Positions 2,330-49,364 of a stretch of DNA of 64,000 bases are shown here, piece after piece. Origin of the DNA: an uncultured Pseudomonadota bacterium (GTDB lineage: Bacteria > Myxococcota_A > Polyangia > Fen-1088). How positions within the stretch are numbered: position 1 is the first letter of the stretch; every line of letters starts with the position of its first letter. The stretch covers positions 1 through 64,000 of the forward strand of contig CAWKBC010000035.1 of assembly GCA_963847705.1 (NCBI GenBank). The letters are read 5' to 3'. The position numbers were made by a program, and so were the translations under genes. The notes beneath the pieces were generated by a model. The model was given only the letters and a program-made list of their open reading frames with translations, had not been told where the DNA came from and did not search any database.

Positions 2330-2354
2330 CGCTGGTCCTCTTTCGAAGGCGGTT

Positions 2355-3173
2355 CTACTCGCAGAAGAACTTCAGGTCGTCGATGTAGATGTCGTAGGCG
2401 GCGCGGGGGATGTTGACCTGGAACTGGATGCCGTAGAGCTTCGATGGCGTGATGTGCGGCTTGTGGGGCGCGCCCCAGTCCGGCATCTGCTTCATGCTCT
2501 TGAACGGAAAGCTGTAGAGCTTCCAGTCGTTGGTGAGGACGATGTTCGCCCCGAAGTCGTTGAAGCACTCCGTGCAGACGCCGCCGTCCGGATCGGTGTT
2601 CACGTCCGGAACCTTCAGCCGCACCTTCCCGGTTGAGTCGGGCCCCTTCTTGGCCCAGAACGAGATCCCGGCGTATTTGGAGGCGTCGTACTGCCCCTTG
2701 GGGTCGATGAAGTTCATCCCCAGGCCTGAAAAGACGATGGCGCCGGTCCCGATGGTCCCGTGATAACGGGCGGCGTACTGCGAGTCGTGGCCCCCTTCGC
2801 TCATCGCGAAGGTGCCCCCCTCTTCACCCGCCGTCGGCTCGACCGTCGTCGTCCCCTTGTCCTTGAACGTGTACCAGTAGCCGCCCCGGCCGTCGTTGGG
2901 CAGGTTCTGGTTGTTCCCGTCCTCGCCGTCGTCGATGAGCGCGTTCGGGCCGCAGTCCTTCCCCACCGCCACGCCCGGCGCTGCGGCCGCGGCCGGCGCC
3001 GCCGCAGCTCCGCCCCCGATCGACGCCGCCGACCCGGGCGCCGCGCTGGGCGCCGTCGCCGACTTGTCCGGGATGATGCACCCGAGCAGCATCAGCGAGC
3101 CGCCCGCCAGCACCAGAAACGCCCGCGTCATGTCCCTCTTGTCGCTCTTCTGAATCTTCATCTGAATCTTCAT
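2355..3173 (-). CDS. Lipoprotein with C-terminal CBM11/CIA30-like carbohydrate-binding domain
   Basis: Lipobox LLGC, Ala/Pro linker, then [40 protein letters not shown]. Start at 3173 or 3131 (both have an RBS); the ORF-track start at 3518 overlaps the upstream gene. Confidence 0.75.
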
Positions 3174-3205
3174 GGGTGAATTCCTCGTCCGACGAAAGGT
3201 GGTGT

Positions 3206-5020
3206 TTAGAACCAGATGATCGCGGCGATCTGCGCCGCGTTCTTGTCGACGCCCAGGTTGGCCGCGCCCTGCTGGCTGTTGTAGGGGAACTGCGACCCGC
3301 TCATGAACCCGGGCATCGGCACGTCGCCTGCCCCGTAGCCGCTCCCGTAGAAGTACCGCGAGTACTGGATCATCACCTGCTCGTGCGTCACGAACGCCGT
3401 CCGGAAGATGATCCGCGGCGAGATGACCGAGAACGACTCCGACGAGTTGTCCAGGTTCGGCTCCACCACGTCGTACCGCGCCCCCAGGCCCAGCCAGGCC
3501 AGCGGCACGTACGTCCACTCCGTCCCGAACTTCAGCTTGTTCAGCGAGAACTGCGGGTTCATCGGCGCGTCCACGTGATTGAACATCCCGAACACCGTCC
3601 CGATCAGATCCGGTCCGTCACCCCAGAACGCCTGCGGGTAGTGGAACAGCTGCCCGAAGCTGAAGCTGTACTGCAGCTCCACGCTGTCGATCGACCCCGT
3701 CACCGGATCGACGCCGCCCGGCGCGCCGAAGTAGTTGTCGTGCAGCTGCCAGCCCCCGAACGAGTGCAGCACCTCGATGGCGTCCGCCAGATAGAGCGCG
3801 TTCGTCGCCGCCAGGTGCGAGTACCCGATGTACCCGTCCCCCAGGACGCCGCCCAGGAGCTTGATGTCCGCGCCGTAGATGGCGATGCTCGGCTTCGGGT
3901 CCGACGGCAGCCGCGCCGGCGACTTCGGGTTGGGCATCCCGTTGACGATGCCGGTGGTCCCGTCCCACGAGGGATTGGTCCCCCCCGAGTACGACCCCGC
4001 CCGTTCGTCGTCGTTCGCGAACACGTAGATGTAGTGCGCCCCGATGATCACCTCTTTCTTGAACACCGCGCCGACGTGCCCGTGCGCCACGAACGTCGAC
4101 TCCTGCGGCACCGGCCCCGGATACGGGTCCCAGGCCGGCAGATTCTGGTTCGCGCTCACGCTCGCCGAATTTCCCTCCGGCGGTCCGTAGAACGGGATCG
4201 GCTCCAGCTTGCCGCCGAACCCCTCCTCGACCTCGAAGGTCCAGTCGTCGACGTCATAGTCGTACGTCGCCGTCTCGCCCGCCGTGTGCGTCCGCCCGAA
4301 CAGGTACGTCTCGTACCGGCCCGCGTCGTAACGACCGGCCGCGCCGTAGCGGTTGGTGTACGCCCCGGCGATCAGCGTCAGCCGCGCGTTCTCGCTGACG
4401 AACTCCGGCCAGGTCATCGAGAGGAACGCCTCGTTGATCCCCAGGTTCGACTCCAGCCGCCGGTACCCCGAGTCGGTGATGTTGTAGGACGCGATCTGCA
4501 CCGTCGCCTTCACCCGGTCGTTGCCGTAGTGGAAGTTGAGCTCGGTCCAGGGGCCGACCATGCTGTTCGTGTAGCGCCAGTCGATGTAGTTGGCGTCCGG
4601 CACCAGCGGCGGCGTCCGCAGTTGCGTCCCCGCGTTCCCGGGCGCGAACGGGTTCTGCGTCGTCGGCGGCCCCCACGAAAAGCGCAGCGGCGCCCGGAAG
4701 TACCCGGTCACGTCGAACTTCCACTCGCCGGTCTCCGGCTCCGCCGGCGCGGCCGGCGCCGACTCCGTCGTGGTGTTCGCCAGGCCCCCCACCTGCGGCG
4801 CCTCCGGGCTGAGCCCCAGCGCCGGCGCGCTGCCGCCCTTCTTCTTCGGCGCCGCGACCGGTGCGGCCGCGGGCGCCGCCGGCGTCACCTCGGGACCAGG
4901 TGCGGCGGCAGGCGGAGGACCAGCCGGAACGGCGGTGGCATCGTCCTGCGCAAGCGCCGGGAAGGACCAGGCCGAAAGCAACAGGAGGCTCGTGAGGACC
5001 AGGGGGTTGGTTTTCTTCAT
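3206..5020 (-). CDS. Putative outer-membrane beta-barrel protein (hypothetical)
   Basis: Signal peptide (ALA|QDD), Pro/Ala linker, aromatic-rich alternating strands, C-terminal ...AAIIWF. Confidence 0.65.
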   Translation of the reverse strand: MKKTNPLVLTSLLLLSAWSFPALAQDDATAVPAGPPPAAAPGPEVTPAAPAAAPVAAPKKKGGSAPALGLSPEAPQVGGLANTTTESAPAAPAEPETGEWKFDVTGYFRAPLRFSWGPPTTQNPFAPGNAGTQLRTPPLVPDANYIDWRYTNSMVGPWTELNFHYGNDRVKATVQIASYNITDSGYRRLESNLGINEAFLSMTWPEFVSENARLTLIAGAYTNRYGAAGRYDAGRYETYLFGRTHTAGETATYDYDVDDWTFEVEEGFGGKLEPIPFYGPPEGNSASVSANQNLPAWDPYPGPVPQESTFVAHGHVGAVFKKEVIIGAHYIYVFANDDERAGSYSGGTNPSWDGTTGIVNGMPNPKSPARLPSDPKPSIAIYGADIKLLGGVLGDGYIGYSHLAATNALYLADAIEVLHSFGGWQLHDNYFGAPGGVDPVTGSIDSVELQYSFSFGQLFHYPQAFWGDGPDLIGTVFGMFNHVDAPMNPQFSLNKLKFGTEWTYVPLAWLGLGARYDVVEPNLDNSSESFSVISPRIIFRTAFVTHEQVMIQYSRYFYGSGYGAGDVPMPGFMSGSQFPYNSQQGAANLGVDKNAAQIAAIIWF

Positions 5021-5029
5021 GGAATGGGC

Positions 5030-5110
5030 TTCCTTTGAGCTGTCTTCGAGCTTTTCTTGGAGCTTCTTTTGGACCTTGTCTCGGAGCTTCTTTGGAACCG
5101 GTCTCGGGAG
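5030..5110. repeat. Degenerate ~12-bp tandem repeat upstream of the OM barrel gene
   Basis: Minus-strand units tccaaagaagc / tccgagacaagg / tccaaaagaagc / tccaagaaaagc / tcgaagacagc / tcaaaggaagc. Confidence 0.5.
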
Positions 5111-5194
5111 GTCTTACGGAGTCCCCACTGCACTTGCCGGACTCCGTTTGCTGCGGGTGCTGCGGTGCTGCTGACTCGCGCGCCGGAGGCGCGC

Positions 5195-7111
5195 CTATCC
5201 GACGCTGCCAATCTTGAACACGTCCCAGGCCGGCGTGAAATTACTGACATCCGGCTTCTGATTCCAGAGATAAACGGCTGGGTAGGTGTGGAGCCCCAGC
5301 TCGGTCTTGACGATCACCGTCATGAAGAGCTGGGCGATCGGCGACCCGTTCGCGTCGACCATCCCTTGCCGCCAGGACGAGAAGATCACCCAGTAGTAGA
5401 GATCACCGTTCGGCGCCGTCTCCACTTCCGGAGACCATTTGGCCCAGGTGTTGTTGATGCCCGGGCTGGCCATCTGCCCGGGGCACTGCGGCGGATCGTT
5501 GGCCGCCAGCCGCGTCCCGGTCCCACCCGCGGTGGGAATCACGAACAGCTCCGTCTGGGGCTGCATGTACATCCCCTCCCAGACGCAGGGCGACGGGTTG
5601 CAACCCGTCGCGGATTTGTCGAGGTTCGCGTGATTGACCGCGGCGGTGCTGGCGGCAACTCGGTCGTAGACGATGAAATCGTCGTCGGCCGAGAGCGTGC
5701 CGTAGTACTGCGCGTACGCGGGATCCGAGCCGTCACCGGGGATCGCCGTGGGGGTCTGAGCCGCCGTCTTCGAATAGGGGACCTGATAGAGGTGCGCCGT
5801 GCCGGTCCCCAGGCGTCCGGACTTCACGTTGCTGGTCATCGTGAAGACGATGAAATCGTCGCCGGGCGCGTGGCTCCAGGAGGGGGCCGCCGCGTACCTC
5901 TTGTTCGTCGTGTCCGGCGGGTAGATCCAGTTCCAGGCCGTCCCTTTGAGCGTGGTGGCCGGATCCGCCATCCCCGTGTAGCTGGAGGCGTTCGACAGGT
6001 CGAACCAGGCCAGTCCAGCCTGCTGATCGCCGTCGATCGAAGAGCCGCTGCTGCAGGGCGCGCCGGTGCCGCAGGTGCCGAGCGGCGCGACCGCGATATA
6101 GTCGTTGGCGGCCCAGTGGTTGATGGAAAACGTGGTGATTCCCACCCACGGCTGGACGAAGGCGTTGTAACCCCCGGCGCCGATATAAGGAACATCGTAA
6201 GGAGGGTCTTTGCCCGGCGAATCGCCCATCAGACCCGGCTGTCCCGAGGCCAGCACGCCGCCCCAGGGATAGGCGTCGTTGAAGGCGATGAAGTTGCCAT
6301 CCGGCGTGGAGGTGTGGCAGCCGATGCAGGTGACGGGGCGTTTGTTGTAGGCGACGTCCATCGTTTCCCAGGTCCCGTTCGTGCTGACGTCAGACGGGAC
6401 CAGGACCTGGGTGACGCTGTCGCCGCCGACCGACATGCCGGAGAGCAACGTATTGCCCACGGGGCCGGTGTTCGCGTTGGTCGAGCCCGTCGGCGACCAG
6501 TAGACCAGGTTCCCCGAGGCGCCCACGGGCGCGATCGAGAAGGCGGCGCCCGTCCCCGCCGAGGGCGCGCCCCCCTGCGACGAGCTGCTGATGGTCACCG
6601 TCAGCGGCATGTCCTGACTGTCGTTGGCCAGCGCCCGCCACATCGCGGCCGGCATCGTCCAGTTGGTCTTGTCGGTGTAGACGACCAGATCGTCCGCCTG
6701 GTTCCCGCCGCTCACGCGCAGCTCGTAGAGATCCCCGGTGGCCGTCCAGCTGAATCGGGGGCGGAGCCAGTTGTTGGGGAGCAGCGTCCCGTCCTGCGGC
6801 TCGAAGAGGCAGGGCCCCCCGCTCCCGCTGCCGCCGGTGGCGAAGATCTGGGGCGCGCCCGACGGGACGGAGCCGGTGCTCCCATCGGGGCCGAAGGGGC
6901 CGCCGCCAAAGTCATCGCACGCGCCGCTGCAGGCGGCAGGCGGCGGATTGGTGCTGCCACCCCCGCCGCTCCCGTGGCTGCCGCCGCTCCCGCTCGACGC
7001 GCCGGAACCACCCCCCGCACCCTTCGTCGGCGACGAGGTTTCTTTGACGCCCGCGCAACCCAGAACCAGCCCCGCGGAGACCAACAACAGAAAAGGGCTT
7101 GGGTGCTTCAT
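5195..7111 (-). CDS. Lipoprotein with TolB/PD40-like beta-propeller
   Basis: Lipobox VLGC after MKHPSPF, Gly/Ser linker, EPQDGTLLPNNWLRPRF, CIGCH, AAAPSWS, NNTWAKWSP, YYWVIFSS. Confidence 0.7.
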   Translation of the reverse strand: MKHPSPFLLLVSAGLVLGCAGVKETSSPTKGAGGGSGASSGSGGSHGSGGGGSTNPPPAACSGACDDFGGGPFGPDGSTGSVPSGAPQIFATGGSGSGGPCLFEPQDGTLLPNNWLRPRFSWTATGDLYELRVSGGNQADDLVVYTDKTNWTMPAAMWRALANDSQDMPLTVTISSSSQGGAPSAGTGAAFSIAPVGASGNLVYWSPTGSTNANTGPVGNTLLSGMSVGGDSVTQVLVPSDVSTNGTWETMDVAYNKRPVTCIGCHTSTPDGNFIAFNDAYPWGGVLASGQPGLMGDSPGKDPPYDVPYIGAGGYNAFVQPWVGITTFSINHWAANDYIAVAPLGTCGTGAPCSSGSSIDGDQQAGLAWFDLSNASSYTGMADPATTLKGTAWNWIYPPDTTNKRYAAAPSWSHAPGDDFIVFTMTSNVKSGRLGTGTAHLYQVPYSKTAAQTPTAIPGDGSDPAYAQYYGTLSADDDFIVYDRVAASTAAVNHANLDKSATGCNPSPCVWEGMYMQPQTELFVIPTAGGTGTRLAANDPPQCPGQMASPGINNTWAKWSPEVETAPNGDLYYWVIFSSWRQGMVDANGSPIAQLFMTVIVKTELGLHTYPAVYLWNQKPDVSNFTPAWDVFKIGSVG

Positions 7112-37269: not shown

Positions 37270-37545
37270 ATGGGGATCGACGGAAAATCACTGTCAGAGA
37301 AGGTCACGCGCCTGGTGTTGGAGTACGCACAGACGCCCCCGCCCGAGGCGTCAGCGGGTGCGCCGCTCGATGGAAAGCTGACCTTGCGCGGAGATCTCGC
37401 CGTCGACTCGCTGGCCCTCGTCTCGCTGACGATTCGGCTGGGAGAGGAGCTGGGGGTCGACGTCGTCGAGAGTGGTCTCGATTTCAGTCAACTGGAGACG
37501 ATGGGAGATCTCTTGGCCGTCGCCGAGAAACTCAATCGCCATTGA
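37270..37545 (+). CDS. Acyl carrier protein
   Basis: AGGAG RBS, ATG 37270, 91 aa, DLAVDSLALVSL (Ppant Ser), TMGDL. Confidence 0.85.
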   Translation: MGIDGKSLSEKVTRLVLEYAQTPPPEASAGAPLDGKLTLRGDLAVDSLALVSLTIRLGEELGVDVVESGLDFSQLETMGDLLAVAEKLNRH

Positions 37546-37657
37546 CCGTTTGCGCGTCCTGACCGCCCTCTCCCCCGTCGCACTCAACCTGCCGTAATTG
37601 CTGTTTAATGTCCGGACGTCGGACCCGGAAACCTGGCGTGGCCGTGAAAATCTCCGA

Positions 37658-37687
37658 TTGACCGGGGAGGCCAAAGAATGGTACGAG
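37658..37687 (+). promoter_or_regulatory. Putative sigma70-type promoter for peptide 1
   Basis: TTGACC-N18-TACGAG in a lower-GC intergenic region. Confidence 0.35.
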
Positions 37688-37745
37688 TATGTGCTGGCAG
37701 GTGGTTGTTCAGAGGTCAGCAAACTCGAAGGGGACCAGAGAAATC

Positions 37746-37907
37746 ATGGACGCGAACAAAGACACGGTGACCGAGGGCAGCGAGAAGATCGGCCGGAACT
37801 CTGATGTGGCACCAGTCGCGGGAAACGCCGCCGACGAGGGTGAGTTCAAGATCGAGATCCGAAAGCTGGAAGTCCCGGTCCGCCCGCGCGGCGTCCTGGC
37901 TGAATAG
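37746..37907 (+). CDS. Putative RiPP precursor/scaffold peptide 1 (53 aa)
   Basis: MDANKDTVTEGSEKIGRNSDVAPVAGNAADEGEFKIEIRKLEVPVRPRGVLAE. Last 21 aa identical to the peptide at 42640. Confidence 0.85.
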   Translation: MDANKDTVTEGSEKIGRNSDVAPVAGNAADEGEFKIEIRKLEVPVRPRGVLAE

Positions 37908-37919
37908 GCTCGCCTCAGC

Positions 37920-37949
37920 GCCGCGCCGGCGCAAGGGCGCGGCAAAAAA
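37920..37949. terminator. Stem-loop immediately after peptide 1
   Basis: gccgcgcc-ggcgcaag-ggcgcggc followed by an A-run. Confidence 0.5.
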
Positions 37950-37964
37950 TCGAATGAGGGTTGG

Positions 37965-39905
37965 ATGACCGCGACGAACCTCGCGAAGGCGCCGGTTTAC
38001 TTTGGGACACCCGAGCGGCCTCTGTTCGGGTTCTACCACCCTCCCGCTGGCTCCCGGGTGCGCGGGACGGCGGTGTTGCTCTGCAATCCGCTGGGAGATG
38101 ATCTGATCCGCGCGCATCGTCCCTTCCGGCACCTGGCCGAGGATCTGTCTGCCGCGGGATTCCCCGTCCTTCGGTTCGACTTCGACGGGACGGGAGACTC
38201 GTCGGGAGACGAGCGGGATCCGAATCGCGTGGCCACCTGGCGCGCCGACGTCGGCCGCGCCGCGGCCGACTTGCGCGCGCGCAGCGGCGTGGAGCCGCTG
38301 GCCCTGGTCGGTCTCAGACTGGGGGGAACGTTTGCTGCGTTGGGCGCGGCGGATCTGGGCGGCGTCGACGCGCTCGTTCTGTGGGGCGCTTACGACAACG
38401 GCGGCGCGTTCGTTTCGGAGGCCACGAAAGCTCACAAGATGCACGTGATGCTGCAGCCGACCAGCTTCTCCGGTGGACCGCCGGCCAGCGACGGGCAAGA
38501 GGCGCTCGGCTTCCTGCTGGCGACGCAGACGATCGCCGATCTCGAGGCGATCGATCTCCTGTCGCTGCCCCGCTCGCCCGCCAGACGGACGCTGGTCCTC
38601 GACACCGCGAACGTCGAAACCGACAGCCCGCTGGTGGCGAAGCTGCGGGAGCTGGGTGGGGCGGTCACCCACCGTCACATCCCGGGCAACAAGTTCTTGA
38701 TCATCTCACCCCACCAGTCGGAGGTCCCCACGGCGGCCCTTTCGGCGATCACGGGTTGGCTTTCCGAGGAGTGCCCGTTCGCCGACCGCAGCTCGGCGAC
38801 CAGCGCGATGGCCGGTTCGGCGACCAGCGCGATGGCCGGTTCGGCGACCAGCGCCATGGCCGGTTCGGCGACCAGCGCCATGCCCGGCGTGGCGACCAGC
38901 GCGAGGCCCGGCCAGGCGTCCAACGACGCGAAGACGCCCCCGGCATGGGACGCGGCCCGCACGGTGAACAACCTGCGCGAGCGCCCCGTGTTCTTCGGGG
39001 GGCCTCGAAAACTGTTCGGGATCCTCACGGTGCCGCCGTCGAGCACCGCCCGACCCGATCTTCCGGCCATCATCCTGCTCAACGCCGGCACCGTTCATCG
39101 GGTGGGCTCGCACCGGCTCTACGTGCCGATGGCGCGCAAGTGGGCGGCGCTCGGGTTCCACGTGCTCCGCGTCGATCTCTCGGGGATTGGCGACAGCCCG
39201 GTTCCCGAGGGTCACCCCGAGAACCTCACCTACCCGCGCGAGGGCCTCGAGGACGCACGCGCCGCGATGGACTTCCTCGAGGACACCACGACGAGCGGGA
39301 AGTTCGTCGTCGCCGGTCTCTGTTCGGGCGGCGACATCGCCTTCCAGCTGGGGTTCAAGGAGCCGCGCGTGGCGAGCGCCATCATGATGAACCCGCGCAC
39401 TTTCTTGGTGAACGACCTGAGCATGGTCGATTCGTACGAACGGGCGCGCTGGTCCCAGCAGGCCGTGGCCCACAGCGACTCCTGGAAGGATCTTCTGAGC
39501 GGTGACGTGAACCTCACCCGCGCGTTCAAGCTGGCTGCACCGAAGGTGAAGGACCTGGTCGTGAGGCGTGCGAAACGAGCCATCACGGACCTCATGGGCG
39601 CCGTGCTCCCCAACGCGCCGGCCACCGAACAGCGTCGGGAGACCGACGTTCCCTACTGCCTCCGGTCGATGGCCGAACGCGGGGTCGACACCTACCTGTT
39701 CGTCACCGAGCACGACCCCGGCGTCGACTACGTCGATGCGAACTACGGACCGGCCATGAGCGCGCTCGCGTCGATCCCCAACTTCCGTCGAACCGACGTC
39801 AAGGGGACCGACCACACCTTCACCGCGCGCTGGGCACAGGAGCAGGTCAGCGCGATGATCACCGAGCACCTGACGCGACGATTCTTGGCGGCCCGGGCCG
39901 CGTAA
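37965..39905 (+). CDS. Tandem alpha/beta-hydrolase (putative acyltransferase, EPS-associated type)
   Basis: Domain 1: LRFDFDGTGDS, LVGLRLGG. Domain 2: NAG..HRVG..RLYV, RVDLSGIGDS, GLCSGG, DHTF. Confidence 0.85.
   Translation: MTATNLAKAPVYFGTPERPLFGFYHPPAGSRVRGTAVLLCNPLGDDLIRAHRPFRHLAEDLSAAGFPVLRFDFDGTGDSSGDERDPNRVATWRADVGRAAADLRARSGVEPLALVGLRLGGTFAALGAADLGGVDALVLWGAYDNGGAFVSEATKAHKMHVMLQPTSFSGGPPASDGQEALGFLLATQTIADLEAIDLLSLPRSPARRTLVLDTANVETDSPLVAKLRELGGAVTHRHIPGNKFLIISPHQSEVPTAALSAITGWLSEECPFADRSSATSAMAGSATSAMAGSATSAMAGSATSAMPGVATSARPGQASNDAKTPPAWDAARTVNNLRERPVFFGGPRKLFGILTVPPSSTARPDLPAIILLNAGTVHRVGSHRLYVPMARKWAALGFHVLRVDLSGIGDSPVPEGHPENLTYPREGLEDARAAMDFLEDTTTSGKFVVAGLCSGGDIAFQLGFKEPRVASAIMMNPRTFLVNDLSMVDSYERARWSQQAVAHSDSWKDLLSGDVNLTRAFKLAAPKVKDLVVRRAKRAITDLMGAVLPNAPATEQRRETDVPYCLRSMAERGVDTYLFVTEHDPGVDYVDANYGPAMSALASIPNFRRTDVKGTDHTFTARWAQEQVSAMITEHLTRRFLAARAA
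38793..38912 (+). repeat. 5 x 24-bp repeat in the hydrolase interdomain linker (SATSAMAG)
   Basis: tcggcgaccagcgc[g/c]atggccggt units, degenerating toward the 3' end. Confidence 0.9.
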
Positions 39906-40909
39906 TGGCCTTCAAGGCGCAAGCTGCGCTCGTCAAGGCGGGACCCCTCGAGCCGTTCGAATACGAGCCGCAGGAGCTGGGCGCGACGGACGTCGAGATC
40001 GAGATCTCGCACTGCGGCCTCTGCCACAGCGACATCCACCTGATCGACGACGGCTGGGGGCGCAGCAAGTACCCGCTGGTCCCGGGCCACGAGATCGCCG
40101 GGACTGTCGCGGCCGCAGGCTCGGCCGTCACTCACCTCACCGTCGGCCAGCGGGTCGGCGTCGGCTGGCAGCGAAGCGCTTGCCTGGAGTGCGATCTCTG
40201 CCTGGGCGGCGAAGAGAACCTGTGTCGCAAGCAGCAGGCGACCTGCATGGGCCATCACGGCGGCGTGGCCAACCGGATTCGCCTCGACGGCCGGTTCGCC
40301 TTCGCGCTGCCCGAGACGATGGACAGCGCCGTGGCCGCGCCGCTCCTCTGTGGCGGCGTCACCGTCTTCGCGCCGATGCGGCGCTTCGGGATCGGCGCCA
40401 CCAGCAGCGTGGCGGTGATCGGGATCGGCGGCCTCGGGCACATGGCGCTGCTGATGCTGCGCGCGCTCGGCTGCGAAACGACCGCCTTTTCGACCTCCGC
40501 CGCGAAGAAGGACGAAGCGCTGGCGATGGGAGCTGACCACTTTGCCTCCTCGACCGATCCGAGCGACATCCGTAAACACTTCGGCCGCTTCGATCTGGTG
40601 CTGTCGACCGTTCACGCCCGGCTCGACTGGACCACCTATCTCCAGACGCTGAGGGCCAACGGGACGCTCTGCCTGCTGGGGATGCCGCCGGGTGTCATTC
40701 AATTCCCGCCCGCCCTGCTGGTGACCGGCCAGCGCTCGATCACGGGCAGCGACATCGGCAGCCGGAAGGTCATTCGGGAGATGCTCGCCTTCGCGGCGCG
40801 CCACAAGGTGGCCCCGCAGATCGAGCGGATGCCGATGGCCGAGGCCAACGCGGCCTTGACGCGGCTGCGGCAGAACCAGGTGCGGTACCGCGTCGTCCTG
40901 GAGAATTAG
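39905..40909 (+). CDS. Zn-dependent NAD(P) alcohol dehydrogenase (cinnamyl-alcohol DH / YahK-Ahr family)
   Basis: CGLCHSD, PGHEI, CLECDLC..NLC, APLLCGG, GIGGLGH, YRVVL. TAATG coupling to the hydrolase. Confidence 0.92.
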   Translation: MAFKAQAALVKAGPLEPFEYEPQELGATDVEIEISHCGLCHSDIHLIDDGWGRSKYPLVPGHEIAGTVAAAGSAVTHLTVGQRVGVGWQRSACLECDLCLGGEENLCRKQQATCMGHHGGVANRIRLDGRFAFALPETMDSAVAAPLLCGGVTVFAPMRRFGIGATSSVAVIGIGGLGHMALLMLRALGCETTAFSTSAAKKDEALAMGADHFASSTDPSDIRKHFGRFDLVLSTVHARLDWTTYLQTLRANGTLCLLGMPPGVIQFPPALLVTGQRSITGSDIGSRKVIREMLAFAARHKVAPQIERMPMAEANAALTRLRQNQVRYRVVLEN

Positions 40910-40972
40910 ACGTCGGGCGGCCGCCCGGTGGTGGGCGGGGCACGACTCGCGTAGATTCTCGCTTCCGGGAGC

Positions 40973-42560
40973 ATGGAAATGAACGTTCAACTCTTCGACA
41001 GCACGTTGCGTGACGGCACGCAGAGCGAGGGTCTCTCCCTCTCCGTGGAGGACAAGCTCAAGATCTCGCGCCTGCTGGACGGCTTCGGCATCCACTACAT
41101 CGAGGGGGGCTACCCCGGGTCGAACCCGAAGGACGTCGAGTTCTTCCAGCGCGCCAAGTCGGTCACCTTCCGCCACGCCAAGCTGACCGCATTCGGGATG
41201 ACCCGCAAGCCGGGCGGGCGCGCCGACAGCGATCCGATCCTGGCGGCGATGGTGGCCGCCGAGACCCCCGCGGTCGCCGTGGTCGGAAAGACCTGGACGT
41301 TGCACGTCACCAAGATCGTCGGCACCACGCTGGAAGAGAACCTGGCGATGGTCGCGGACAGCGTCGCCTTCCTCAAGCAGAAGGGGCGCGAGGTGGTGTT
41401 CGACTGCGAGCACTTCTTCGACGGCTTCCGCGCCGATCCCGACTACGCGCTGGCGGTGGTCAAGGCCGCCTCGGCGGCGGGGGCCGACTGGATCGCCATG
41501 TGCGACACCAACGGCGGCAGCCTGCCGGGGACGATCACCGAGGTGGTTGGCGCGGTCAAACGGGCGGTCCTCACCCCGCTCGGGATTCACACCCACAATG
41601 ACTGCGACGTGGCGGTGGCCAACGCCTTCGCCGGGATCGAGGCCGGCTGTACCCAGGTGCAGGGGACGATGAACGGCTGGGGCGAGCGGTGCGGGAACGC
41701 CAATTTGATCTCGGTCATCGCCGGGCTGCAACTGAAGATGGGCCGGCGCTGCGTGCCGGAGGAGAACCTGGCCCGCCTCACCGAGCTCTCGCGGGCGGTC
41801 AGCGAGATCGCCAACATTCGCCCGCGCGCGCACGCCCCCTACGTGGGTCACTCGGCGTTCGCGCACAAAGGGGGGATGCACGTCGCCGCGGTGGAGAAGA
41901 TCCCCGCCAGCTACGAGCACATCGTCCCCGAGCGGGTCGGCAATCGGCGCCACATCGTCGTCTCGGAGCTGTCGGGGCGCGGCAACGTCCGCATGCGCGC
42001 CGGGGAGCTGGGAATCGACGTGCAAGGGAACGAAAAGCGCGTCCTCGAGCACATCAAGGAGCTGGAGAGCCAGGGCTACCAGTTCGAGGCGGCCGAGGGG
42101 TCGTTCGAGCTGCTCGGGCGACGCAGCCAGCCAAGCTACGTGGCCCCCTTCGACGTCCTCGACCTGGTCGTCATCTCGGAGCGGCGCCGCGGCAACTCGA
42201 TGTTCGCCGAGGCGACCGTGAAGCTGAAGATCGGCAACGAGAATCGTCCACGAGGTCGCGGAGGGGTCCGGGCCGGTGCACGCGCTCGACGGGGCCTTCC
42301 ACAAGGCGTTGAACCCTCACTTTCCGACGCTGCGCGACGTTCGCCTGGCCGACTACAAGGTTCGAATCCTAGATCCTGACGCGGCGACCAGCGCCAAGAC
42401 GCGCGTCCTCATCGAGGCGGCGCGCGGCGAGGAGCGCTGGAGCACCATCGGCGTGTCGCAGAACATCATCGAGGCCAGCGCCACAGCCCTGGCGGACGCT
42501 CTGGAGTTGCCGCTGGCCCGCCTCGCCTCCGCCCGGATTCCCGAGAGTGCCGCCGGCTGA
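40973..42560 (+). CDS. cimA: Citramalate synthase (LeuA family), apparent +1 indel at 42242-42243
   Basis: DSTLRDGTQ, YIEGGYPGSNPKD, GIHTHND, GERCGN, AFAHKGGMH. Removing one A joins ORFs 40973-42379 and 42276-42560 as NEIVHEVAEGSGPVHALD..DYKVRIL..WSTIGVSQNIIEAS (528 aa). Confidence 0.88.
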
Positions 42561-42639
42561 ATGCGCGGTTCCGGGGAAGAAAATGGTCAGCACTCCGTTG
42601 GTTGATTGGTTAGAATTCCAATACCACGGGGGAGCTCAA

Positions 42640-42795
42640 ATGGACGCCAACAAGAACCAGACCACCGACACCAAAGACACCATCATCCCGACCGACGGCG
42701 CGCCAGCGCCCGCGACCGGAGATGACGCCGAGTTCAAGATCGAGATCCGGAAGCTGGAAGTTCCGGTCCGCCCGCGCGGCGTCCTGGCAGAATAG
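42640..42795 (+). CDS. Putative RiPP precursor/scaffold peptide 2 (51 aa)
   Basis: GGGAG RBS. MDANKNQTTDTKDTIIPTDGAPAPATGDDAEFKIEIRKLEVPVRPRGVLAE. Confidence 0.85.
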   Translation: MDANKNQTTDTKDTIIPTDGAPAPATGDDAEFKIEIRKLEVPVRPRGVLAE

Positions 42796-42809: not shown

Positions 42810-42834
42810 CGCGGGATCCTCAAGGGATCCCGCG
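42810..42834. terminator. Palindrome after peptide 2, between convergent genes
   Basis: cgcgggatcc-tcaag-ggatcccgcg. Confidence 0.6.
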
Positions 42835-42849
42835 CCCTCGCAACACGCG

Positions 42850-44538
42850 TCAGTCCGCGCGCTCGATCCGGAGTGCTCCGCGGGAATTTCGAAACGGGGC
42901 GAACGCAGCGTGAAGCTTGCGCCGCTGGATCTTGCCGGTGTGCGTGCGGGGAATCGGCGTCGTGCCGTAGAGAATGATCTTGGGGCGCGCGTCGAGCGGC
43001 ATCTCGCCCACCACCTTGGTGAGGCGGGCGCGCAGCTCGTCGGCGAGCTCTTCATTCTCGAGGTAGAGGCCGATCTCCTCGCCGTGAACGTCGTGCGGAA
43101 ATCCGAGCGCGACCAGCCGGCCCTCGATCTCCGGCAGCTCGGTCACGATCCGCCGCTCGATCGCCAAAGGGCTGAACTTGTCGCCGTCCCGGATGATCGT
43201 CTCCTTGATCCGTCCGGTGATGAAGAACGCCGGCCCGCCCGCCGAGGCTTGGGGCTCGCCGGCTTGCTGTCCGCCTGCGGAGGCGAGGGGCCCGCCCGCG
43301 GAGCCTCGAGGCTGGCCTGCCTGCTGAAAGAAACCCTCGTCGCCCGTCCGCAGCCAGCCGTCTGCCCCGAGCGTCGCCGCCGTCGCGCCTTCATCACGAA
43401 AGTAAGACAGCATGGTGCTGTGGCCGCGCACGCACAGCTCGCCGCGCTGGTCGGCCGGCAGCGTCGCCCCATCGGCGCCGACGACCTTCACCTCGGTCCC
43501 CGGCAGCGGGCTCCCGATGCAGGTCAGCTCTCCGCCGTAAAGGAGCCGCCGTCGTTCATCCTCGGCCAGATCGGCCGGAAGGCAGCAGGCGAAGTTGGTG
43601 TACTCGGACAGCCCCCAACCTTGCAGCAGACGGAGGTTGGTCTTCTCCTCGAAGGCGCGGGCCAGACTCACGGTCAGGGGCGCCGACGAGACGAGAACTG
43701 CGCGCAGCGTCGGGAGCTTCTCGGCGCGGACGCCGAGCTGCAGGAGAGGCTGCAGCAGCGTCGGGACCACGCTGGTCAAGGTGACCGACTCGACCCGGAG
43801 GACCTCGCCCCAGGCGAACGGATCGAACCGCTCCATGAAGACGAGGTGCCCGCCGGTGGTCAGCGTGGTCATCAGGCCGAACCCCAGCGCGTGCGCGTGG
43901 TAGAGCGGCAGCACCGCCAGCTGCGTCTCGTCCTCGAAGCGAAAATTGAGCGCCATGCTCCAGGCGTTGGCGAGCAGGCTCCCTTGCCCCAGCGCGACGC
44001 CTTTGGGATTCCCGGTGGTCCCGGAGGTGTAAAGGACGATCGCCATCTGCTTCTCCAGCGACCTCGCGGCCGCGGGCGCCGCCGCCGCGGGAGGCGGTGA
44101 CGCGCCGCCGCCGCCGGCATCGGGCACCGTCTCGTCCTCGAAGGCACAGACGACGGCGGGACGGGCCACCAGCCAATCGAGCAGCTCACGCGCGCCGAAG
44201 ACGAGACGCGCCTCCGAGTGCGCCAGGATGTAGTCCCAGTCCGCGGGCGGCGTCGTTGGATTGAGCGGGACGACGGCGGCGCCGAGCTGCATGGCTGCCA
44301 GAAAGAGCGCTGGGACCTCCAGCCGATTGGGCGAGAGGACCGCGACGCAATCTCCCTGCCGCACGCCGAGCTCGTCCCTCAGCCGGCGCGTGAATCGCTC
44401 GACAGCGCCGAGCAGCTCCCCGTAGGTCCAGTGCCCCGCGCGTGTCTTGCCTTTGTAAAAGGTGAGCGCCGGCCGTCCCGCAGGGAGGCGGGCGAGACCG
44501 TCCAGCAGGGCGGGGATGTCCTCGAAGCGTGTCGTCAT
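42850..44538 (-). CDS. Adenylate-forming (ANL) acyl-CoA/acyl-ACP ligase
   Basis: LYTSGTTGNPKG, QGWGLSE, WLRTGD, ITGRIKE, PRTHTGKIQR. Confidence 0.92.
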   Translation of the reverse strand: MTTRFEDIPALLDGLARLPAGRPALTFYKGKTRAGHWTYGELLGAVERFTRRLRDELGVRQGDCVAVLSPNRLEVPALFLAAMQLGAAVVPLNPTTPPADWDYILAHSEARLVFGARELLDWLVARPAVVCAFEDETVPDAGGGGASPPPAAAAPAAARSLEKQMAIVLYTSGTTGNPKGVALGQGSLLANAWSMALNFRFEDETQLAVLPLYHAHALGFGLMTTLTTGGHLVFMERFDPFAWGEVLRVESVTLTSVVPTLLQPLLQLGVRAEKLPTLRAVLVSSAPLTVSLARAFEEKTNLRLLQGWGLSEYTNFACCLPADLAEDERRRLLYGGELTCIGSPLPGTEVKVVGADGATLPADQRGELCVRGHSTMLSYFRDEGATAATLGADGWLRTGDEGFFQQAGQPRGSAGGPLASAGGQQAGEPQASAGGPAFFITGRIKETIIRDGDKFSPLAIERRIVTELPEIEGRLVALGFPHDVHGEEIGLYLENEELADELRARLTKVVGEMPLDARPKIILYGTTPIPRTHTGKIQRRKLHAAFAPFRNSRGALRIERAD

Positions 44539-44545
44539 CGTCTCA

Positions 44546-45137
44546 TCACCGCGCGGGCCCGAACGCGTAGGCGTAGGAGGCCTGAATCCGCTCCGAGAGG
44601 ACGCTCAGAATCCTCCATCGAGTTTCTCCAGTCGATGTCGGGCGCCGCCTCTTCCAGCGTGGTGACGCCGAAGTAGAGCGGTTGGAAGCCCATCTTGACG
44701 TAGGCCTTGGCGTAGTCGGCGGCGACGGCCATCTCGTCGTCGAACACGGCCGCCCGGTGGCCGAGGCCAGGATAGTTGGACTTGGCGAACAATCCGACCT
44801 TACCGGCGTCGTTCCAGTGCAGCGCCACGCAGTGGCCGCACTCCTCGCCCGACACGGGATCGATGCGATGGATGGCCAGGAGGCGCCGTTTGACGTCGCC
44901 GAAGAGAAGCTCCAGCAGCCCGTAGGCGAGGATGGCGGAGTCGATGCAGGTGATCTTGGGGGCGTGCAGGGACGACCGGACCGACTGCACGCGGTAAGCG
45001 GTCCGCCAGTCCTCCAGATAGCCGATTCCGTCCAGCACGCGCCGGATGTCCTCTGGCGACTCGAACGGCCCGCCGCCGCCGAGCTCCCGAATGCGGCGGA
45101 ACTCGGCCTCTCCGTACGTGAGCGGCCCTGAGGACAA
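44546..45137 (-). CDS. Transglutaminase/papain-like Cys-His protein (apparent +1 indel at 44609-44610)
   Basis: ITCIDSAILA, ECGHCVAL, GLFAKSNYPGL. Removing one base gives ...DWRNSMEDLSVLSERIQASYAYAFGPAR* (TGA 44546-44548). Confidence 0.6.
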
Positions 45138-45146
45138 GCCCGCGGC

Positions 45147-46145
45147 CTACTCGGAGAGCAGATCGCTCGGCGCGCGCGGCATGGTCGGGAAGCGGGCGTA
45201 GAAGGTGTCGATTCCGTCCATGAAGAGATAGAGGTGCTCGGCCATCGAGCGGACGATGTTGAGCGCGTCGTCCACCTCGGCCCGCGTGAGCGGCGGAATG
45301 CTCTGGCACATCTCCAGGAAGACGTTCTCGTGCCCGAGCTTCTGGTCGGCGTTGGTGTGCGCGATGAAGGAGTCGATCACCTTGTCGGTGTACGGGTAGT
45401 GCTTGCGCATCGCCGCGTAGAAGTCGTCGATCGAGCTGGCGTCCTTGTCGTCGCCGGTGTTCTCGGTCATCTGCAGGAGCTCGTTCCCGGCGTAGTAGCC
45501 GAACGAGTTGCGCCCGGCCGACTCGCTGAGGAAGTTCACCAGCGCGCGCGTGCTCGGCAGCGGCTGCGCCCGCAGCACGGTGTCGTCCGGGAAGAGGCTG
45601 CGCAGCCCCTTGCGGTAGATGTCGCCGTGGTTGTACTCCTCGATGAAGTGCCGCGCGAGGTGCGGCATCATCTCGGGCGTGGCGTTGGCGGCCGCGATGG
45701 CCATGTGCTCGAACGCCCCCTCGATGTAGTGGTACTTCTCGAAGGCGAACCCCAGCACCTGCGCGCGCGAAGCCTTGCCGGTCACGATCTTCTCCCACAG
45801 CGGGTGGTCGTAGATCGGCTGCAGCCAGTGGGTCACGTACTTGCGGTGGATCTCGTAGAACTGCTCGCCGGAGATCCGCTCACCGTCGTCGTCCTTGAAC
45901 GCCAGCACGCCGGTCTGACCGAGCTGCTGCGAGAGCGACTGGACCCGCTTGGGTGACTCCGCGATCCGCTCGGCGATGCTCCCCACGCCGGTGGAGCCGT
46001 CGAGATAAGGCAGCATCTTGTCGAGCAGCCGCGCGGCCGCCCCCTCGAGCAAGACCTCTTGACCCATGTACTCGATGGCCAGCTTGTCGGCGTCACGTCG
46101 CACGACCTTGGCCGTGCGCTTCAGAACAGGTAATTGCGTCTGCAT
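45147..46145 (-). CDS. RRE-like wHTH domain fused to heme-oxygenase-like diiron oxidase (PqqC/CADD-like) #2
   Basis: N-terminal beta-strands plus LDGSTGVGSIAERI..VQSLSQQLGQTGVL; HPLW, EKYHY, HFIEEYNH, AHTNADQKLGH. Confidence 0.8.
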   Translation of the reverse strand: MQTQLPVLKRTAKVVRRDADKLAIEYMGQEVLLEGAAARLLDKMLPYLDGSTGVGSIAERIAESPKRVQSLSQQLGQTGVLAFKDDDGERISGEQFYEIHRKYVTHWLQPIYDHPLWEKIVTGKASRAQVLGFAFEKYHYIEGAFEHMAIAAANATPEMMPHLARHFIEEYNHGDIYRKGLRSLFPDDTVLRAQPLPSTRALVNFLSESAGRNSFGYYAGNELLQMTENTGDDKDASSIDDFYAAMRKHYPYTDKVIDSFIAHTNADQKLGHENVFLEMCQSIPPLTRAEVDDALNIVRSMAEHLYLFMDGIDTFYARFPTMPRAPSDLLSE

Positions 46146-46157
46146 GGGGTCCCCTTA

Positions 46158-47153
46158 CTAATCGAGCAACTTGCTGAACTTCGGCCGCGGCATCGGGTTC
46201 GACTCGACGCCGTAGTACTTCTCGATGCTGTCCGTCCAGAGCCAGATGTGCTCGATGAGCTGGTGGCCGTACTCGAGGACGCGCCCGGCGCGCGTAGCCG
46301 GGATCTCCTTGACGGTGCTGAGGATGTCGAGGAACAGATCGGAGTGCTGGTACTGCACGTCCAGGTCGAGGTGCGCGTAGATGGGCGCGATTGACTCCGG
46401 CGGCAGCTTGTAAAGCTCGGCGCACTTTTCGTAGTACGGGTTGTAGGCGCCGCGGTTGACGGTGGTCCCCTCGAGAACTGCCGAGCAGATCGAGTAGGCG
46501 AGGATGTCTTCACGGGCGGCCTGGCGCATGAAGTTCGACAGCGCCAGCGACATGGGAAGCGGGACCGAGTTGATCACGCTCTCCTCGCTGAAGCCGAGCG
46601 CCTTGAGCGCCTTGAGGAAGTAGTGGTAGTGGTTCCACTCCTCCGCGTAGTGCTTGGCGCGCATGTTCTTGATCGACTTCTCCTTGGTGTGAGCACAGGA
46701 GAGCGGCATGTGGCGGTTGGCGTTCCGCGTGTAGTGATAGAGCTCGATGAGCCACCCCGAGTACATGCGGCGCGAGCCGTTCCCGCTGGTCATCCGCTCC
46801 CAGAACGGATGCGAGAACGCCTCGTCGAGCCAGCTCGGCAAGATCTTGTTGAAGAGCGTGTGGAGCTCGACGCCGCTCAACGTCGCCGGAACCGCGTCCT
46901 GGCGATAGAGGAGACCGGCGCTCTCCAGCGCCTTCGTCAGCCGGCCGAGGCGCGCCTCGTCCATCCCCAGATCGGCCGCGATCTCCTTCTGCGACTGGAC
47001 GCTCGGAACCCGCTCCGCCAACTTTTCGTAAAGGGCAAACTCACGGTTGCCGAGCTGGACCTCGCGGTCGCTCAGTCTGACGGATACGCTGTCCCCCTTC
47101 GGAGCCGCCTCATAGACTCTCCGAACCCCAAATTCTTGACCCATGGTTGCCAT
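46158..47153 (-). CDS. RRE-like wHTH domain fused to heme-oxygenase-like diiron oxidase (PqqC/CADD-like) #1
   Basis: N-terminal SQKEIAADLG..LGRLTKALESAGLL; HPFW, ELYHY, HYAEEWNH, VLE, AHLDLDVQYQH. Confidence 0.8.
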   Translation of the reverse strand: MATMGQEFGVRRVYEAAPKGDSVSVRLSDREVQLGNREFALYEKLAERVPSVQSQKEIAADLGMDEARLGRLTKALESAGLLYRQDAVPATLSGVELHTLFNKILPSWLDEAFSHPFWERMTSGNGSRRMYSGWLIELYHYTRNANRHMPLSCAHTKEKSIKNMRAKHYAEEWNHYHYFLKALKALGFSEESVINSVPLPMSLALSNFMRQAAREDILAYSICSAVLEGTTVNRGAYNPYYEKCAELYKLPPESIAPIYAHLDLDVQYQHSDLFLDILSTVKEIPATRAGRVLEYGHQLIEHIWLWTDSIEKYYGVESNPMPRPKFSKLLD

Positions 47154-47807: not shown

Positions 47808-47840
47808 GCGAGCCTCCCTTTTTAACAGCTCATGCCATCC

Positions 47841-49364
47841 ATGAGATCCACCATCACCTCCCTCGGGCATTCCGGGCTGGACATCCGTCTTGGATCCGCC
47901 CGGATCGTCTGCGACCCCTGGCTCTCCCAGCGTGGCGCCTACCTCGCCAGCTGGCACCAGTTTCCCCGCAACGATCACCTGGTGGCGAGCGATCTGCACG
48001 ACACCCCGAACCTCTTCATCAGCAGCCCCCGTCCGGATCACTTCGACGTCGAGACGTTGCGCGGATTCCCCAGGACCGTGCGCGTCATCCTTCCCAGGCT
48101 GGCCTCCCCCACGCTGGCCCAGCAGGTGCGTGCGCTCGGGTTCAGCCAGGTCCTGGAGCTCGGCGATGGCGAGCCGGTCGACCTCGGGGAGGGCGCGCGG
48201 CTTTTTCTGTTGGCCTCGCGGGCCCAGCACCTCCTGGGCGCCGCGCTGGTGATCGAACGCGAGGGCCAGGTGATCGTCGATCAAAACGACTGCCCGCTGG
48301 ATGATGCGGCGCTCGACCGGATCGCGGCGTTGAAGCCGGCCGTCCACCTCCTTCAGTTCTCGGGCGCCTCTTACTTCCCCGCGGTCTACGACTTCTCGCC
48401 GGAGCGAATGAAGACGGAGGTCGAACGGGAGGTCGCTGTCATCGCGCGGCGTTTCTTCGACACGGCCACGCGGGCCGGCGCGCGCCACGTCGTCCCCTCG
48501 GGGGGCCCCCCCTGCTTCGTCGACGAACGCGGGTTCGAGCTGAACTTCGGGGGGAGCATCTTCTTCGACGCCGACGAGCTCCTGGCGCGCGCCGCGCGCG
48601 AGGCGCCGCAGCTCCGCGACCGGCTGCACCCCCTCTATCCCGGAGACGTCGCCGCGCGCGACGGCGGAGACTGGAGCTTCGCCGGCCACAGACCGTATGA
48701 CGACAAGCGCAGCTACCTCGCTGCCCACCGCGACCTGCGGGGCCCGGTGCGCCAGAGCTACCTGACCGAGCGGCGCGCGGAGGCGGAGCCGGTCGACAGC
48801 AAGGACTTCCGATCTTACTTGCGCGATTTCTTCCAGTTCGAGGACATGACCGCGGACCTGAGAACCATCATTCAGTTTCGCCTCACCGACGGGCCGTCGG
48901 TCTGGATCGACTTTCGAAAAAAGCCGTACCGCTACCTGACGGAGTGCGAGGAGCCGGCCGCTCACGTCCTGACCCTGGAGAGCGCCTGGGTGAGCCTGGT
49001 GTTGCAGGGGAAGCTGACCTGGCACGAGCTTCTGATGAGCCGGGAGGTGACCATCACGCGCGATCCCGATCGCGAGGTCCCCAAGCTGATGCAACACTTC
49101 GACTACCGTCACGACGAGGCGCTGTTCGATCTGGTGCGGCTCCTCGATCCCGCGCTCATCACGGTGCAGGACGAGCAGATGGAGTACGTCTGCCAGCGCT
49201 TCTGTCCTCATCGCGGGCGCGACCTCGAGTACGCGGTCATCGAGCGCGGCGTGCTCACCTGCACCGCCCACGGCTGGCGGTTCGATCTCCGAAAGGGGGG
49301 GCGCTGCCTCTGGGGCGGTGAGACGCCGCTGCTGGTGAAAGAGATTCGCCCGCTCAGCCGGTAG
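47841..49364 (+). CDS. MBL-fold protein with C-terminal Rieske [2Fe-2S] domain
   Basis: LGHSG, CDPWL, SW.QFP, DQND, PSGGPPCF; Rieske CPH...CTAHGWRFD. Start 47841 or 47832. Confidence 0.8.
   Translation: MRSTITSLGHSGLDIRLGSARIVCDPWLSQRGAYLASWHQFPRNDHLVASDLHDTPNLFISSPRPDHFDVETLRGFPRTVRVILPRLASPTLAQQVRALGFSQVLELGDGEPVDLGEGARLFLLASRAQHLLGAALVIEREGQVIVDQNDCPLDDAALDRIAALKPAVHLLQFSGASYFPAVYDFSPERMKTEVEREVAVIARRFFDTATRAGARHVVPSGGPPCFVDERGFELNFGGSIFFDADELLARAAREAPQLRDRLHPLYPGDVAARDGGDWSFAGHRPYDDKRSYLAAHRDLRGPVRQSYLTERRAEAEPVDSKDFRSYLRDFFQFEDMTADLRTIIQFRLTDGPSVWIDFRKKPYRYLTECEEPAAHVLTLESAWVSLVLQGKLTWHELLMSREVTITRDPDREVPKLMQHFDYRHDEALFDLVRLLDPALITVQDEQMEYVCQRFCPHRGRDLEYAVIERGVLTCTAHGWRFDLRKGGRCLWGGETPLLVKEIRPLSR

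Follow-up and report, generated by a model that had tools for sequence, protein, structure and literature searches.

Gene content of the locus

The window analysed here, a stretch of 64,000 nucleotides (positions 1 to 64,000 of contig CAWKBC010000035.1, assembly GCA_963847705.1) from an uncultured bacterium of the class Polyangia, contains two small genes, A and B, encoding peptides with a common C-terminal tail. They lie in a cassette that also encodes two heme-oxygenase-like diiron oxidases (HDOs), each with an N-terminal domain resembling the recognition element (RRE) of pathways for peptides that are made on the ribosome and modified after translation (RiPPs). The conserved cassette comprises eight genes, for an acyl carrier protein (ACP), the peptide, a double alpha/beta-hydrolase, a Zn-dependent alcohol dehydrogenase (ADH), an AMP-forming ligase, a vasohibin/CPR-C4-like Cys-His protease and the two HDOs. 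In the window, the genes for HDO1, HDO2, the Cys-His protein and the AMP ligase, on the minus strand, converge on the plus-strand series ACP, peptide A, hydrolase, ADH, cimA and peptide B. An earlier, sequence-only reading of this DNA had drawn attention to the peptides, but overlooked the accompanying genes for the protease, ACP, ligase, hydrolase and ADH. The cassette is a real and conserved unit, and the peptide is very likely an RRE-HDO precursor.

Peptide A (37746..37907, plus strand; 53 aa) has an acidic variable N-terminal part, a beta-strand leader motif and an invariant tail, and peptide B (42640..42795, plus strand; 51 aa) is its paralogue. Both begin with MDANK and have the last 21 residues in common. 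The conserved 21 codons and stop of A (37842..37907, plus strand) cover the leader motif, predicted to bind the RRE, and the core P-R-G-V-L-A-E, and those of B lie at 42730..42795 on the same strand. As the sequence-only reading had stated, the two sets of 21 codons differ by exactly three synonymous changes (CGA/CGG, GTC/GTT and GCT/GCA). The peptides match each other with an E value of about 1e-20 and are the sole copies in the 6.1-Mb genome. The lower GC content reported upstream of each gene was also confirmed (57% at 37600-37799 and 54% at 42600-42699, versus 68.5% for the whole window), and gene A has a purine-rich, ribosome-binding-like stretch on its upstream side. Only one of the two stem-loops proposed to follow the stop codons is significant. 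An 11-bp hairpin (42810..42834, plus strand) lies between the convergent genes, 3' of gene B, folds significantly (z -3.2; 2 of 200 shuffles fold equally well) and is likely to be a terminator or RNA stabiliser, whereas the hairpin downstream of gene A gave a z of -1.3 (22 of 200 shuffles) and is no terminator in a consensus scan. The expectation that gene callers would miss both peptides was incorrect, as both have been called and are present in the protein collection. Neither has a Pfam or NCBIfam family.

The peptide family and selection on its tail

Homologues with a conserved C-terminus were looked for and found, forming a family of about 1,000 members (995 small proteins at E <= 0.01 in a search with a 16-sequence profile). 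Polyangia was the source in all the organism-naming entries among the 120 family matches listed. For the alignment, the sequences from a hidden Markov model search were reduced to 127 representatives at 50% identity, and three with truncated or frameshifted ends were dropped, leaving 124. The G-V-L-A sequence is present in all 124, the preceding R in 123 and the P in 122. In the leader motif, hydrophobic and polar residues alternate with free exchange of I, V and L, and no such interchange is observed in the core; the first 30 residues of the peptide are acidic and show no conservation. The proposed division into a recognition motif (FKIEIRKLE) and a core (VPVRPRGVLAE) is supported as a leader-plus-core arrangement, but with a narrower core than proposed, since the position after LE is variable (L, M, V, I, R or F) and invariance begins at P-R-G-V-L-A.

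The three synonymous differences between A and B provide thin evidence for the purifying selection claimed from them, and the family adds to it: across 87 distinct coding segments, the non-consensus fractions at codon positions 1, 2 and 3 were 0.08, 0.03 and 0.30, with the RGVLA columns ascertained, because that motif was fixed in the search pattern. Gene conversion was considered as the cause of the identical tails and ruled out. The A and B copies of six two-copy loci differ at 3-5 of 63 nucleotides (mean 4.2), matching the distance across genomes (mean 4.4), and paralogue-specific synonymous sites are maintained through all six loci, so the identity of A and B is explained by selection rather than conversion. 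The tail is under selection at the protein level. A loose Shine-Dalgarno-like motif precedes 71 of 75 peptide genes, a count made without a shuffle control. The pairing of the genes, emphasised in the sequence-only reading, is incidental: a single copy is enough in most genomes, and nine of the 13 peptide carriers in the genus have only one. On one contig without cassette genes (L105:7973-11463), tandem copies of the peptide with E and DG ends lie between a sugar transferase and an acyltransferase-3 gene.

The C-terminal end of the 124 homologues is E in 107, D in 10 and DG in 7. This bears on the suggestion that the terminal Glu serves as a handle, as in amino-group carrier proteins of the LysW type (LysW/AmCP) or PEARL-type scaffold peptides, upon which another metabolite would be built and later released. 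The acidic variable N-terminal part and the prevalence of terminal Glu are consistent with such a carrier, as are the carboxypeptidase-like enzyme of the cassette and three predicted ACP-peptide fusions. The fusions, found in three of 13 longer matches, were judged to be weak evidence (P0379, P0380, P0384 and P0385 comprise the three ACP fusions and one with an NDP-sugar epimerase): the end of the ACP gene often runs into the start of the peptide gene, and the fusion of an unrelated upstream epimerase in the same manner makes all of them attributable to adjacency. LysW/AmCP carriers have an invariant terminal Glu motif, whereas D or DG is the ending of 17 of the 124 homologues, and the peptide lacks Cys for the LysW zinc site. 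Furthermore, the cassette contains neither an ATP-grasp nor a LanB-like gene: the three RimK-like matches in the genome are on other contigs, and its single PF04738 match is on contig C9. The variable terminus and the lack of an ATP-grasp or PEARL enzyme in the cassette thus make a LysW- or PEARL-like carrier quite improbable, and we return below to the peptide as a substrate of the HDOs.

The RRE-like oxidases and the leader motif

HDO1 (46158..47153, minus strand) consists of an RRE-like N-domain of three strands and three helices followed by an HDO domain with the ligand set E172/H175/E228/H261/D265/H270. HDO2 (45147..46145, minus strand) also combines an RRE-like N-domain with a heme-oxygenase-like domain, in which the EExxH and HxxxDxxxxH motifs are present. 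An alignment-based model of HDO1 (pLDDT 90.8) showed the three-strand, three-helix domain and then a heme-oxygenase-like bundle. The closest structures were 3dde (Z 23.7, rmsd 2.5, 224 residues aligned) and CADD (Z 21.1, rmsd 2.4, 206 residues aligned), with PqqC also among them; this list was filled by matches to the HDO domain and has no bearing on the N-domain. The set of three His and three carboxylate ligands in HDO1 is complete as judged by its spacing, which equals that of MboA, and HDO2 has five of the six ligands, with the middle Glu out of register. A profile of 19 N-domain sequences matched PbtF, which we take to be an RRE, over residues 8-82, nearly the whole domain, with moderate strength (E 3.6e-4). 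The fold and profile comparisons thus suggest, with moderate confidence, that the N-domains of both HDOs are RRE-like.

Distant loci provide a further indication. The peptide adjacent to the RRE-HDO on Bacillus plasmids (L143/L144) has the strand motif IKISVKKLD, close to that of the window, before a different core, and a similar motif before a different core is found beside the RRE-HDO of locus L145. The leader motif is separable from the core, and the sharing of a strand motif by peptides with different tails is what one would expect if an RRE leader carried a C-terminal substrate. The tie that the sequence-only reading had drawn between the leader-plus-core peptide and the HDO N-domains is supported by co-occurrence (see below), by the RRE-like fold and profile match, and by the similar motif in Bacillus. 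In our view, it is highly probable that the RRE-HDO pair has this peptide as its substrate.

The peptides of these other loci fall into several types by their ends. Small peptides ending in MCG lie just upstream of RRE-HDO genes on two Bacillus plasmids (L143/L144:5499-5582), where the peptide is unannotated in the record, and on a Rhizobium plasmid (L145:5594-5797). Small open reading frames ending in VHL precede two or three RRE-HDO genes at L147:3517-3657, L148:4612-4695 and L139:10175-10375. Genes for GNAT and transporter proteins accompany them in the two plasmid loci, and L148 also has an aminotransferase. Five of the six plasmid RRE-HDO matches have such a peptide, the one without being from Tistrella. 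Peptides ending in Lys are found ahead of distant RRE-HDO pairs in three myxobacterial loci (L124:12384-12509, L125:8885-9064 and L137:7622-7750), which have class III aminotransferase and aldehyde dehydrogenase neighbours and, in two cases, genes for a C39-peptidase-type ABC transporter; these loci are a candidate separate RiPP family. An early idea that the Lys-ending peptides share a G-V-[LIV]-[AV] motif with the window peptides was abandoned, as it held for only two of the three. A further RiPP locus may be present in L125 at 1062-6875, where a 66-aa peptide ending in AMCW lies next to a tryptophan-halogenase-like gene and a gene for a TPR protein.

Co-occurrence and distribution of the cassette

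Among 301 genomes of the class, the HDO pair was found in 16 (14 close and 2 distant), the peptide in 15 and a close protease in 13. All 14 genomes with the close pair carry the peptide, and only one of the 15 peptide carriers lacks a pair. The close protease accompanies the close pair in 13 of 14 genomes, HDO2 of the exception being located at a contig end. Within the genus, the pair is present in 12 of 26 genomes and the peptide in 13 (four with two copies), including all 12 with the pair. These counts are descriptions rather than tests, since related genomes are not independent. The HDO profile revealed no pair in 400 other genomes of the phylum, and the range of the cassette is therefore patchy. 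The one peptide carrier of the genus without the pair is G025, in which a contiguous locus (L140:5325-7728) reads cimA-peptide-GNAT; the slightly diverged peptide there has A in place of a P that is nearly invariant elsewhere, as would befit a relic.

Of the 28 distinct loci that span 10 kb or more and include a close HDO, 26 contain the peptide, and for the other two it lies on another contig of the same genome. The gene order is shuffled among loci, and cimA, a GNAT gene and a gene for a metallo-beta-lactamase-like Rieske protein accompany the cassette only in closer relatives. Polysaccharide-type genes flank 13 of the 28 loci; with non-self queries the number is 10, and the 12 most distant loci contribute 5. 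The corresponding count for 10-kb tiles of the window's own genome is 16 of 586. No exporter recurs among the neighbours (54 proteins scanned, most of them picked from 166 neighbour clusters).

This distribution also bears on whether the locus houses two separate but linked modules, one in which the peptide, HDOs and protease yield a free small molecule, and another in which the ACP, ligase, hydrolase and ADH acylate a polysaccharide with an unrelated acid. Such a division would suit the occurrence of a double hydrolase near glycosyltransferases without the peptide, and the distant RRE-HDO/peptide loci, which lack the ACP module and have aminotransferases and aldehyde dehydrogenases instead. 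However, all seven protein genes are kept in 22 of the 28 loci despite the reshuffled order. The ACP gene is immediately upstream in 35 of 75 peptide genes examined, and its stop overlaps the peptide start in 10 of these 35 adjacent pairs. Two independent modules therefore appear improbable.

The protease and the other cassette genes

The Cys-His protease gene (44535..45137, minus strand) encodes a CPR-C4/vasohibin-like protein whose last 20 or so codons are shifted by a one-base insertion near 44610, the relatives being intact. Its profile matches CPR-C4 (E 1.9e-9) with the catalytic Cys and His aligned, C64 and H102 are invariant in 13 of 13 orthologues, and it has no Pfam or NCBIfam family. 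According to the available text on CPR-C4, vasohibins remove a C-terminal residue, CPR-C4 is structurally related to these carboxypeptidases, and its pocket is described as fitting an acidic substrate (PMC9108980). By analogy, the cassette protease may have carboxypeptidase activity.

The same comparison raises the possibility that the peptide is an adapter or activator subunit, such as a partner of the protease resembling SVBP or a bridge joining the two HDOs. Vasohibins require a small binding protein, but CPR-C4 is described, in the same source, as lacking the partner helices (PMC9108980). The near-total invariance of the tail would suit a binding surface, and G025 has the peptide alone; against this, conservation extends to the free C-terminus, and the strand motif is also found beside RRE-HDOs elsewhere, in three cases in genomes without a match to the cassette protease. 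We give an adapter role very little credence.

The ACP (37270..37545, plus strand) was recognised by weak ACP models (E 6e-5) and has an invariant Ser in a D/E-S-L motif. The double alpha/beta-hydrolase (37965..39905, plus strand) resembles fused exosortase-A-associated hydrolases 2 and 1, with both models below the curated cut-off, contains a GLCSG motif in its C-domain and is a predicted acyltransferase. A low-complexity repeat (SATSAMAG-like) at about 38790-38890 of the window, in the linker joining its domains, is absent from a distant orthologue, and a second double hydrolase of the same genome, 41% identical, lies amid glycosyltransferase genes without a peptide (G000:C30:131816-133402). 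The closest relative of the Zn-dependent ADH (39905..40909, plus strand) is the aldehyde reductase Ahr. The AMP-forming ligase (42850..44538, minus strand) is of the acyl-CoA-ligase type, and no solved structure matched it at a strict cut-off of E 1e-40.

The citramalate synthase gene cimA (40973..42560, plus strand), a neighbour in the genus and close relatives and outside the core cassette, is split by a single additional base near 42243. This insertion and the one at about 44610, which shifts the protease C-terminus, stand out in comparison with two close relatives and are likely to be assembly errors. A further protein (47832-49364), with an N-terminal sequence that by eye is metallo-beta-lactamase-like and a C-terminal Rieske domain, is encoded beside the cassette in the genus, is missing from distant loci and could be an electron-transfer partner.

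A possible pathway

The peptides probably serve as RiPP-type scaffolds, in a pathway of which we infer every step beyond co-occurrence and fold. For the beta-strand leader, we predict a docking site on the RRE-like domains of both iron oxidases. HDO1 and HDO2 would then act on the C-terminal (P)RGVLA[E/D] tail by oxidation, and the vasohibin-like protease would cut the modified piece loose. The small acid so released may be a substrate for reduction by the ADH, then for adenylation by the AMP ligase and loading on the ACP, from which the double hydrolase might transfer it to an acceptor, most probably a cell-surface polysaccharide. The chances that this series of steps holds as far as the ACP seem to us about even. 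The full reading, in which a ribosomal peptide is sacrificed for an acyl building block made by RRE-guided diiron oxidases and a vasohibin-like carboxypeptidase and relayed by the ACP onto exopolysaccharide, is possible but rather doubtful.

The core lacks Cys, Tyr, Trp and His, and any product would therefore have P, R, G, V, L, A or the acidic terminus as its source. The favoured chemistry is an oxidation, most likely a desaturation, at or near the C-terminus, because, by the published descriptions available in part, MboA, the HDO of mangotoxin synthesis, binds the C-terminal carboxylate of a peptide at Fe1 and desaturates the last residue (PMC13185094), and the heme-oxygenase-like VarO introduces a double bond into the Arg side chain of APR/GPR peptides in thiovarsolin synthesis (10.1101/494286). 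Two registers would fit. In one, the oxidases act on the last residue; in the other, they are preceded by the protease, which cuts after the Arg or trims the acidic end. The variation between E, D and DG favours trimming first.

Several observations weigh against this pathway. If the last residue is the substrate, the E, D and DG termini fit a single product poorly. In the N-domain profile search, two helix-turn-helix regulators scored slightly above PbtF, covering only part of the domain; Pfam gave generic winged helix-turn-helix matches, with PqqD not among the first 25 families, and the Atlas neighbours MftB/PqqD, at 0.80, are only a lead. G025 (76% complete) retains an intact peptide at a contiguous locus without the rest of the cassette, and the window's own protease gene is frameshifted. 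In addition, 15 of the 28 loci, which are kin, have no polysaccharide gene by the flank test, and the double hydrolase is also found without the peptide, on contig C30 of the same genome.

The same genes could alternatively make a modified lipopeptide, if the HDOs oxidised the core, the protease removed the leader, and the ligase, ACP and hydrolase acylated the new N-terminus. The co-occurrence and RRE evidence applies equally to this scheme, the type of ligase is in keeping with it, and transglutaminase-like proteins can act as endopeptidases or amide-forming acyl transferases (lasso B2, AdmF). However, the neighbours include no conserved exporter or immunity gene, the core is near-invariant in 124 sequences from 50%-identity clusters, unlike that of most antagonistic peptides, and the protease has a carboxypeptidase-like protein as its closest solved relative. 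We therefore consider a lipopeptide product unlikely.

Relationship to known systems

The PQQ pathway (PqqA/C/D) brings together a peptide scaffold, an RRE, a protease and a heme-oxygenase-like fold to make a small molecule, and HDO1 shares the fold of PqqC. The window cassette differs from it in lacking a radical SAM enzyme, in its Tyr-free peptide and in its HDOs, which keep their metal ligands and have their own RRE-like domain. In the exosortase-A-associated families TIGR03100, TIGR03101 and TIGR03098, related hydrolases and a ligase likewise have an ACP, glycosyltransferases and an AsnB-like gene as neighbours, but the scores are all below the curated cut-offs, the window hydrolases are fused, and the peptide, HDOs and protease are additional.

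Systems combining an HDO with a small peptide have already been published (VarO; GvgB/GvgC), as far as the accessible parts of the sources show. The thiovarsolin pathway likewise has a heme-oxygenase-like protein in a RiPP pathway, and the window core also contains P-R; it is described there with a repeat precursor, VarA, a YcaO/TfuA pair and one heme-oxygenase-like gene, with no dedicated protease noted in the portion available (10.1101/494286). The window cassette has instead two RRE-like HDOs, a Cys-His protease and an ACP module, with a single core per peptide rather than repeats and no YcaO/TfuA pair among the flanking genes scanned. The FVG gvg cluster (GvgB/GvgC), whose product is a small amino acid-type compound, has a 27-aa small open reading frame that is required, together with an esterase/lipase and a protein with a heme-oxygenase domain, and is set apart, in the descriptions available, by a Lys-rich peptide, by carbamoyl-, formyl- and aminotransferases and LysE exporters, and by the absence of an ACP or ligase among the genes named (10.1101/080572, PMC8064604). 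MboA resembles HDO1 in its ligand spacing, but its substrate, according to the text available, is a tripeptide made by an ATP-grasp enzyme rather than a ribosomal one (PMC13185094), and its solved chain of 250 aa aligns only to the HDO domain of the window protein. For CPR-C4, the accessible text gives no substrate or informative gene context (PMC9108980), whereas the window protease is tied to a peptide cassette. The main text of RRE-Finder contains none of six HDO-related terms, and no paper describing this cassette was found in a literature search lacking most subscription journals.

HDOs perform unusual C-H chemistry, and few have been linked to ribosomal peptides. The cassette supplies a pair of RRE-like HDOs with a defined substrate of 21 residues, and it gives the bacterial CPR-C4/vasohibin family a candidate for its natural substrate; if the route from peptide to glycan were correct, this would be the first substrate assigned to a bacterial vasohibin-like carboxypeptidase, and the cassette would represent one branch of a wide RRE-HDO superfamily, with other branches ending in K, VHL or MCG. 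These neighbouring families with other peptide ends provide a handle for the mining of similar chemistry. If the ACP relay delivers its product to a surface polysaccharide, RiPP chemistry would serve in soil myxobacteria for decoration of the envelope, rather than for the production of antibiotics.

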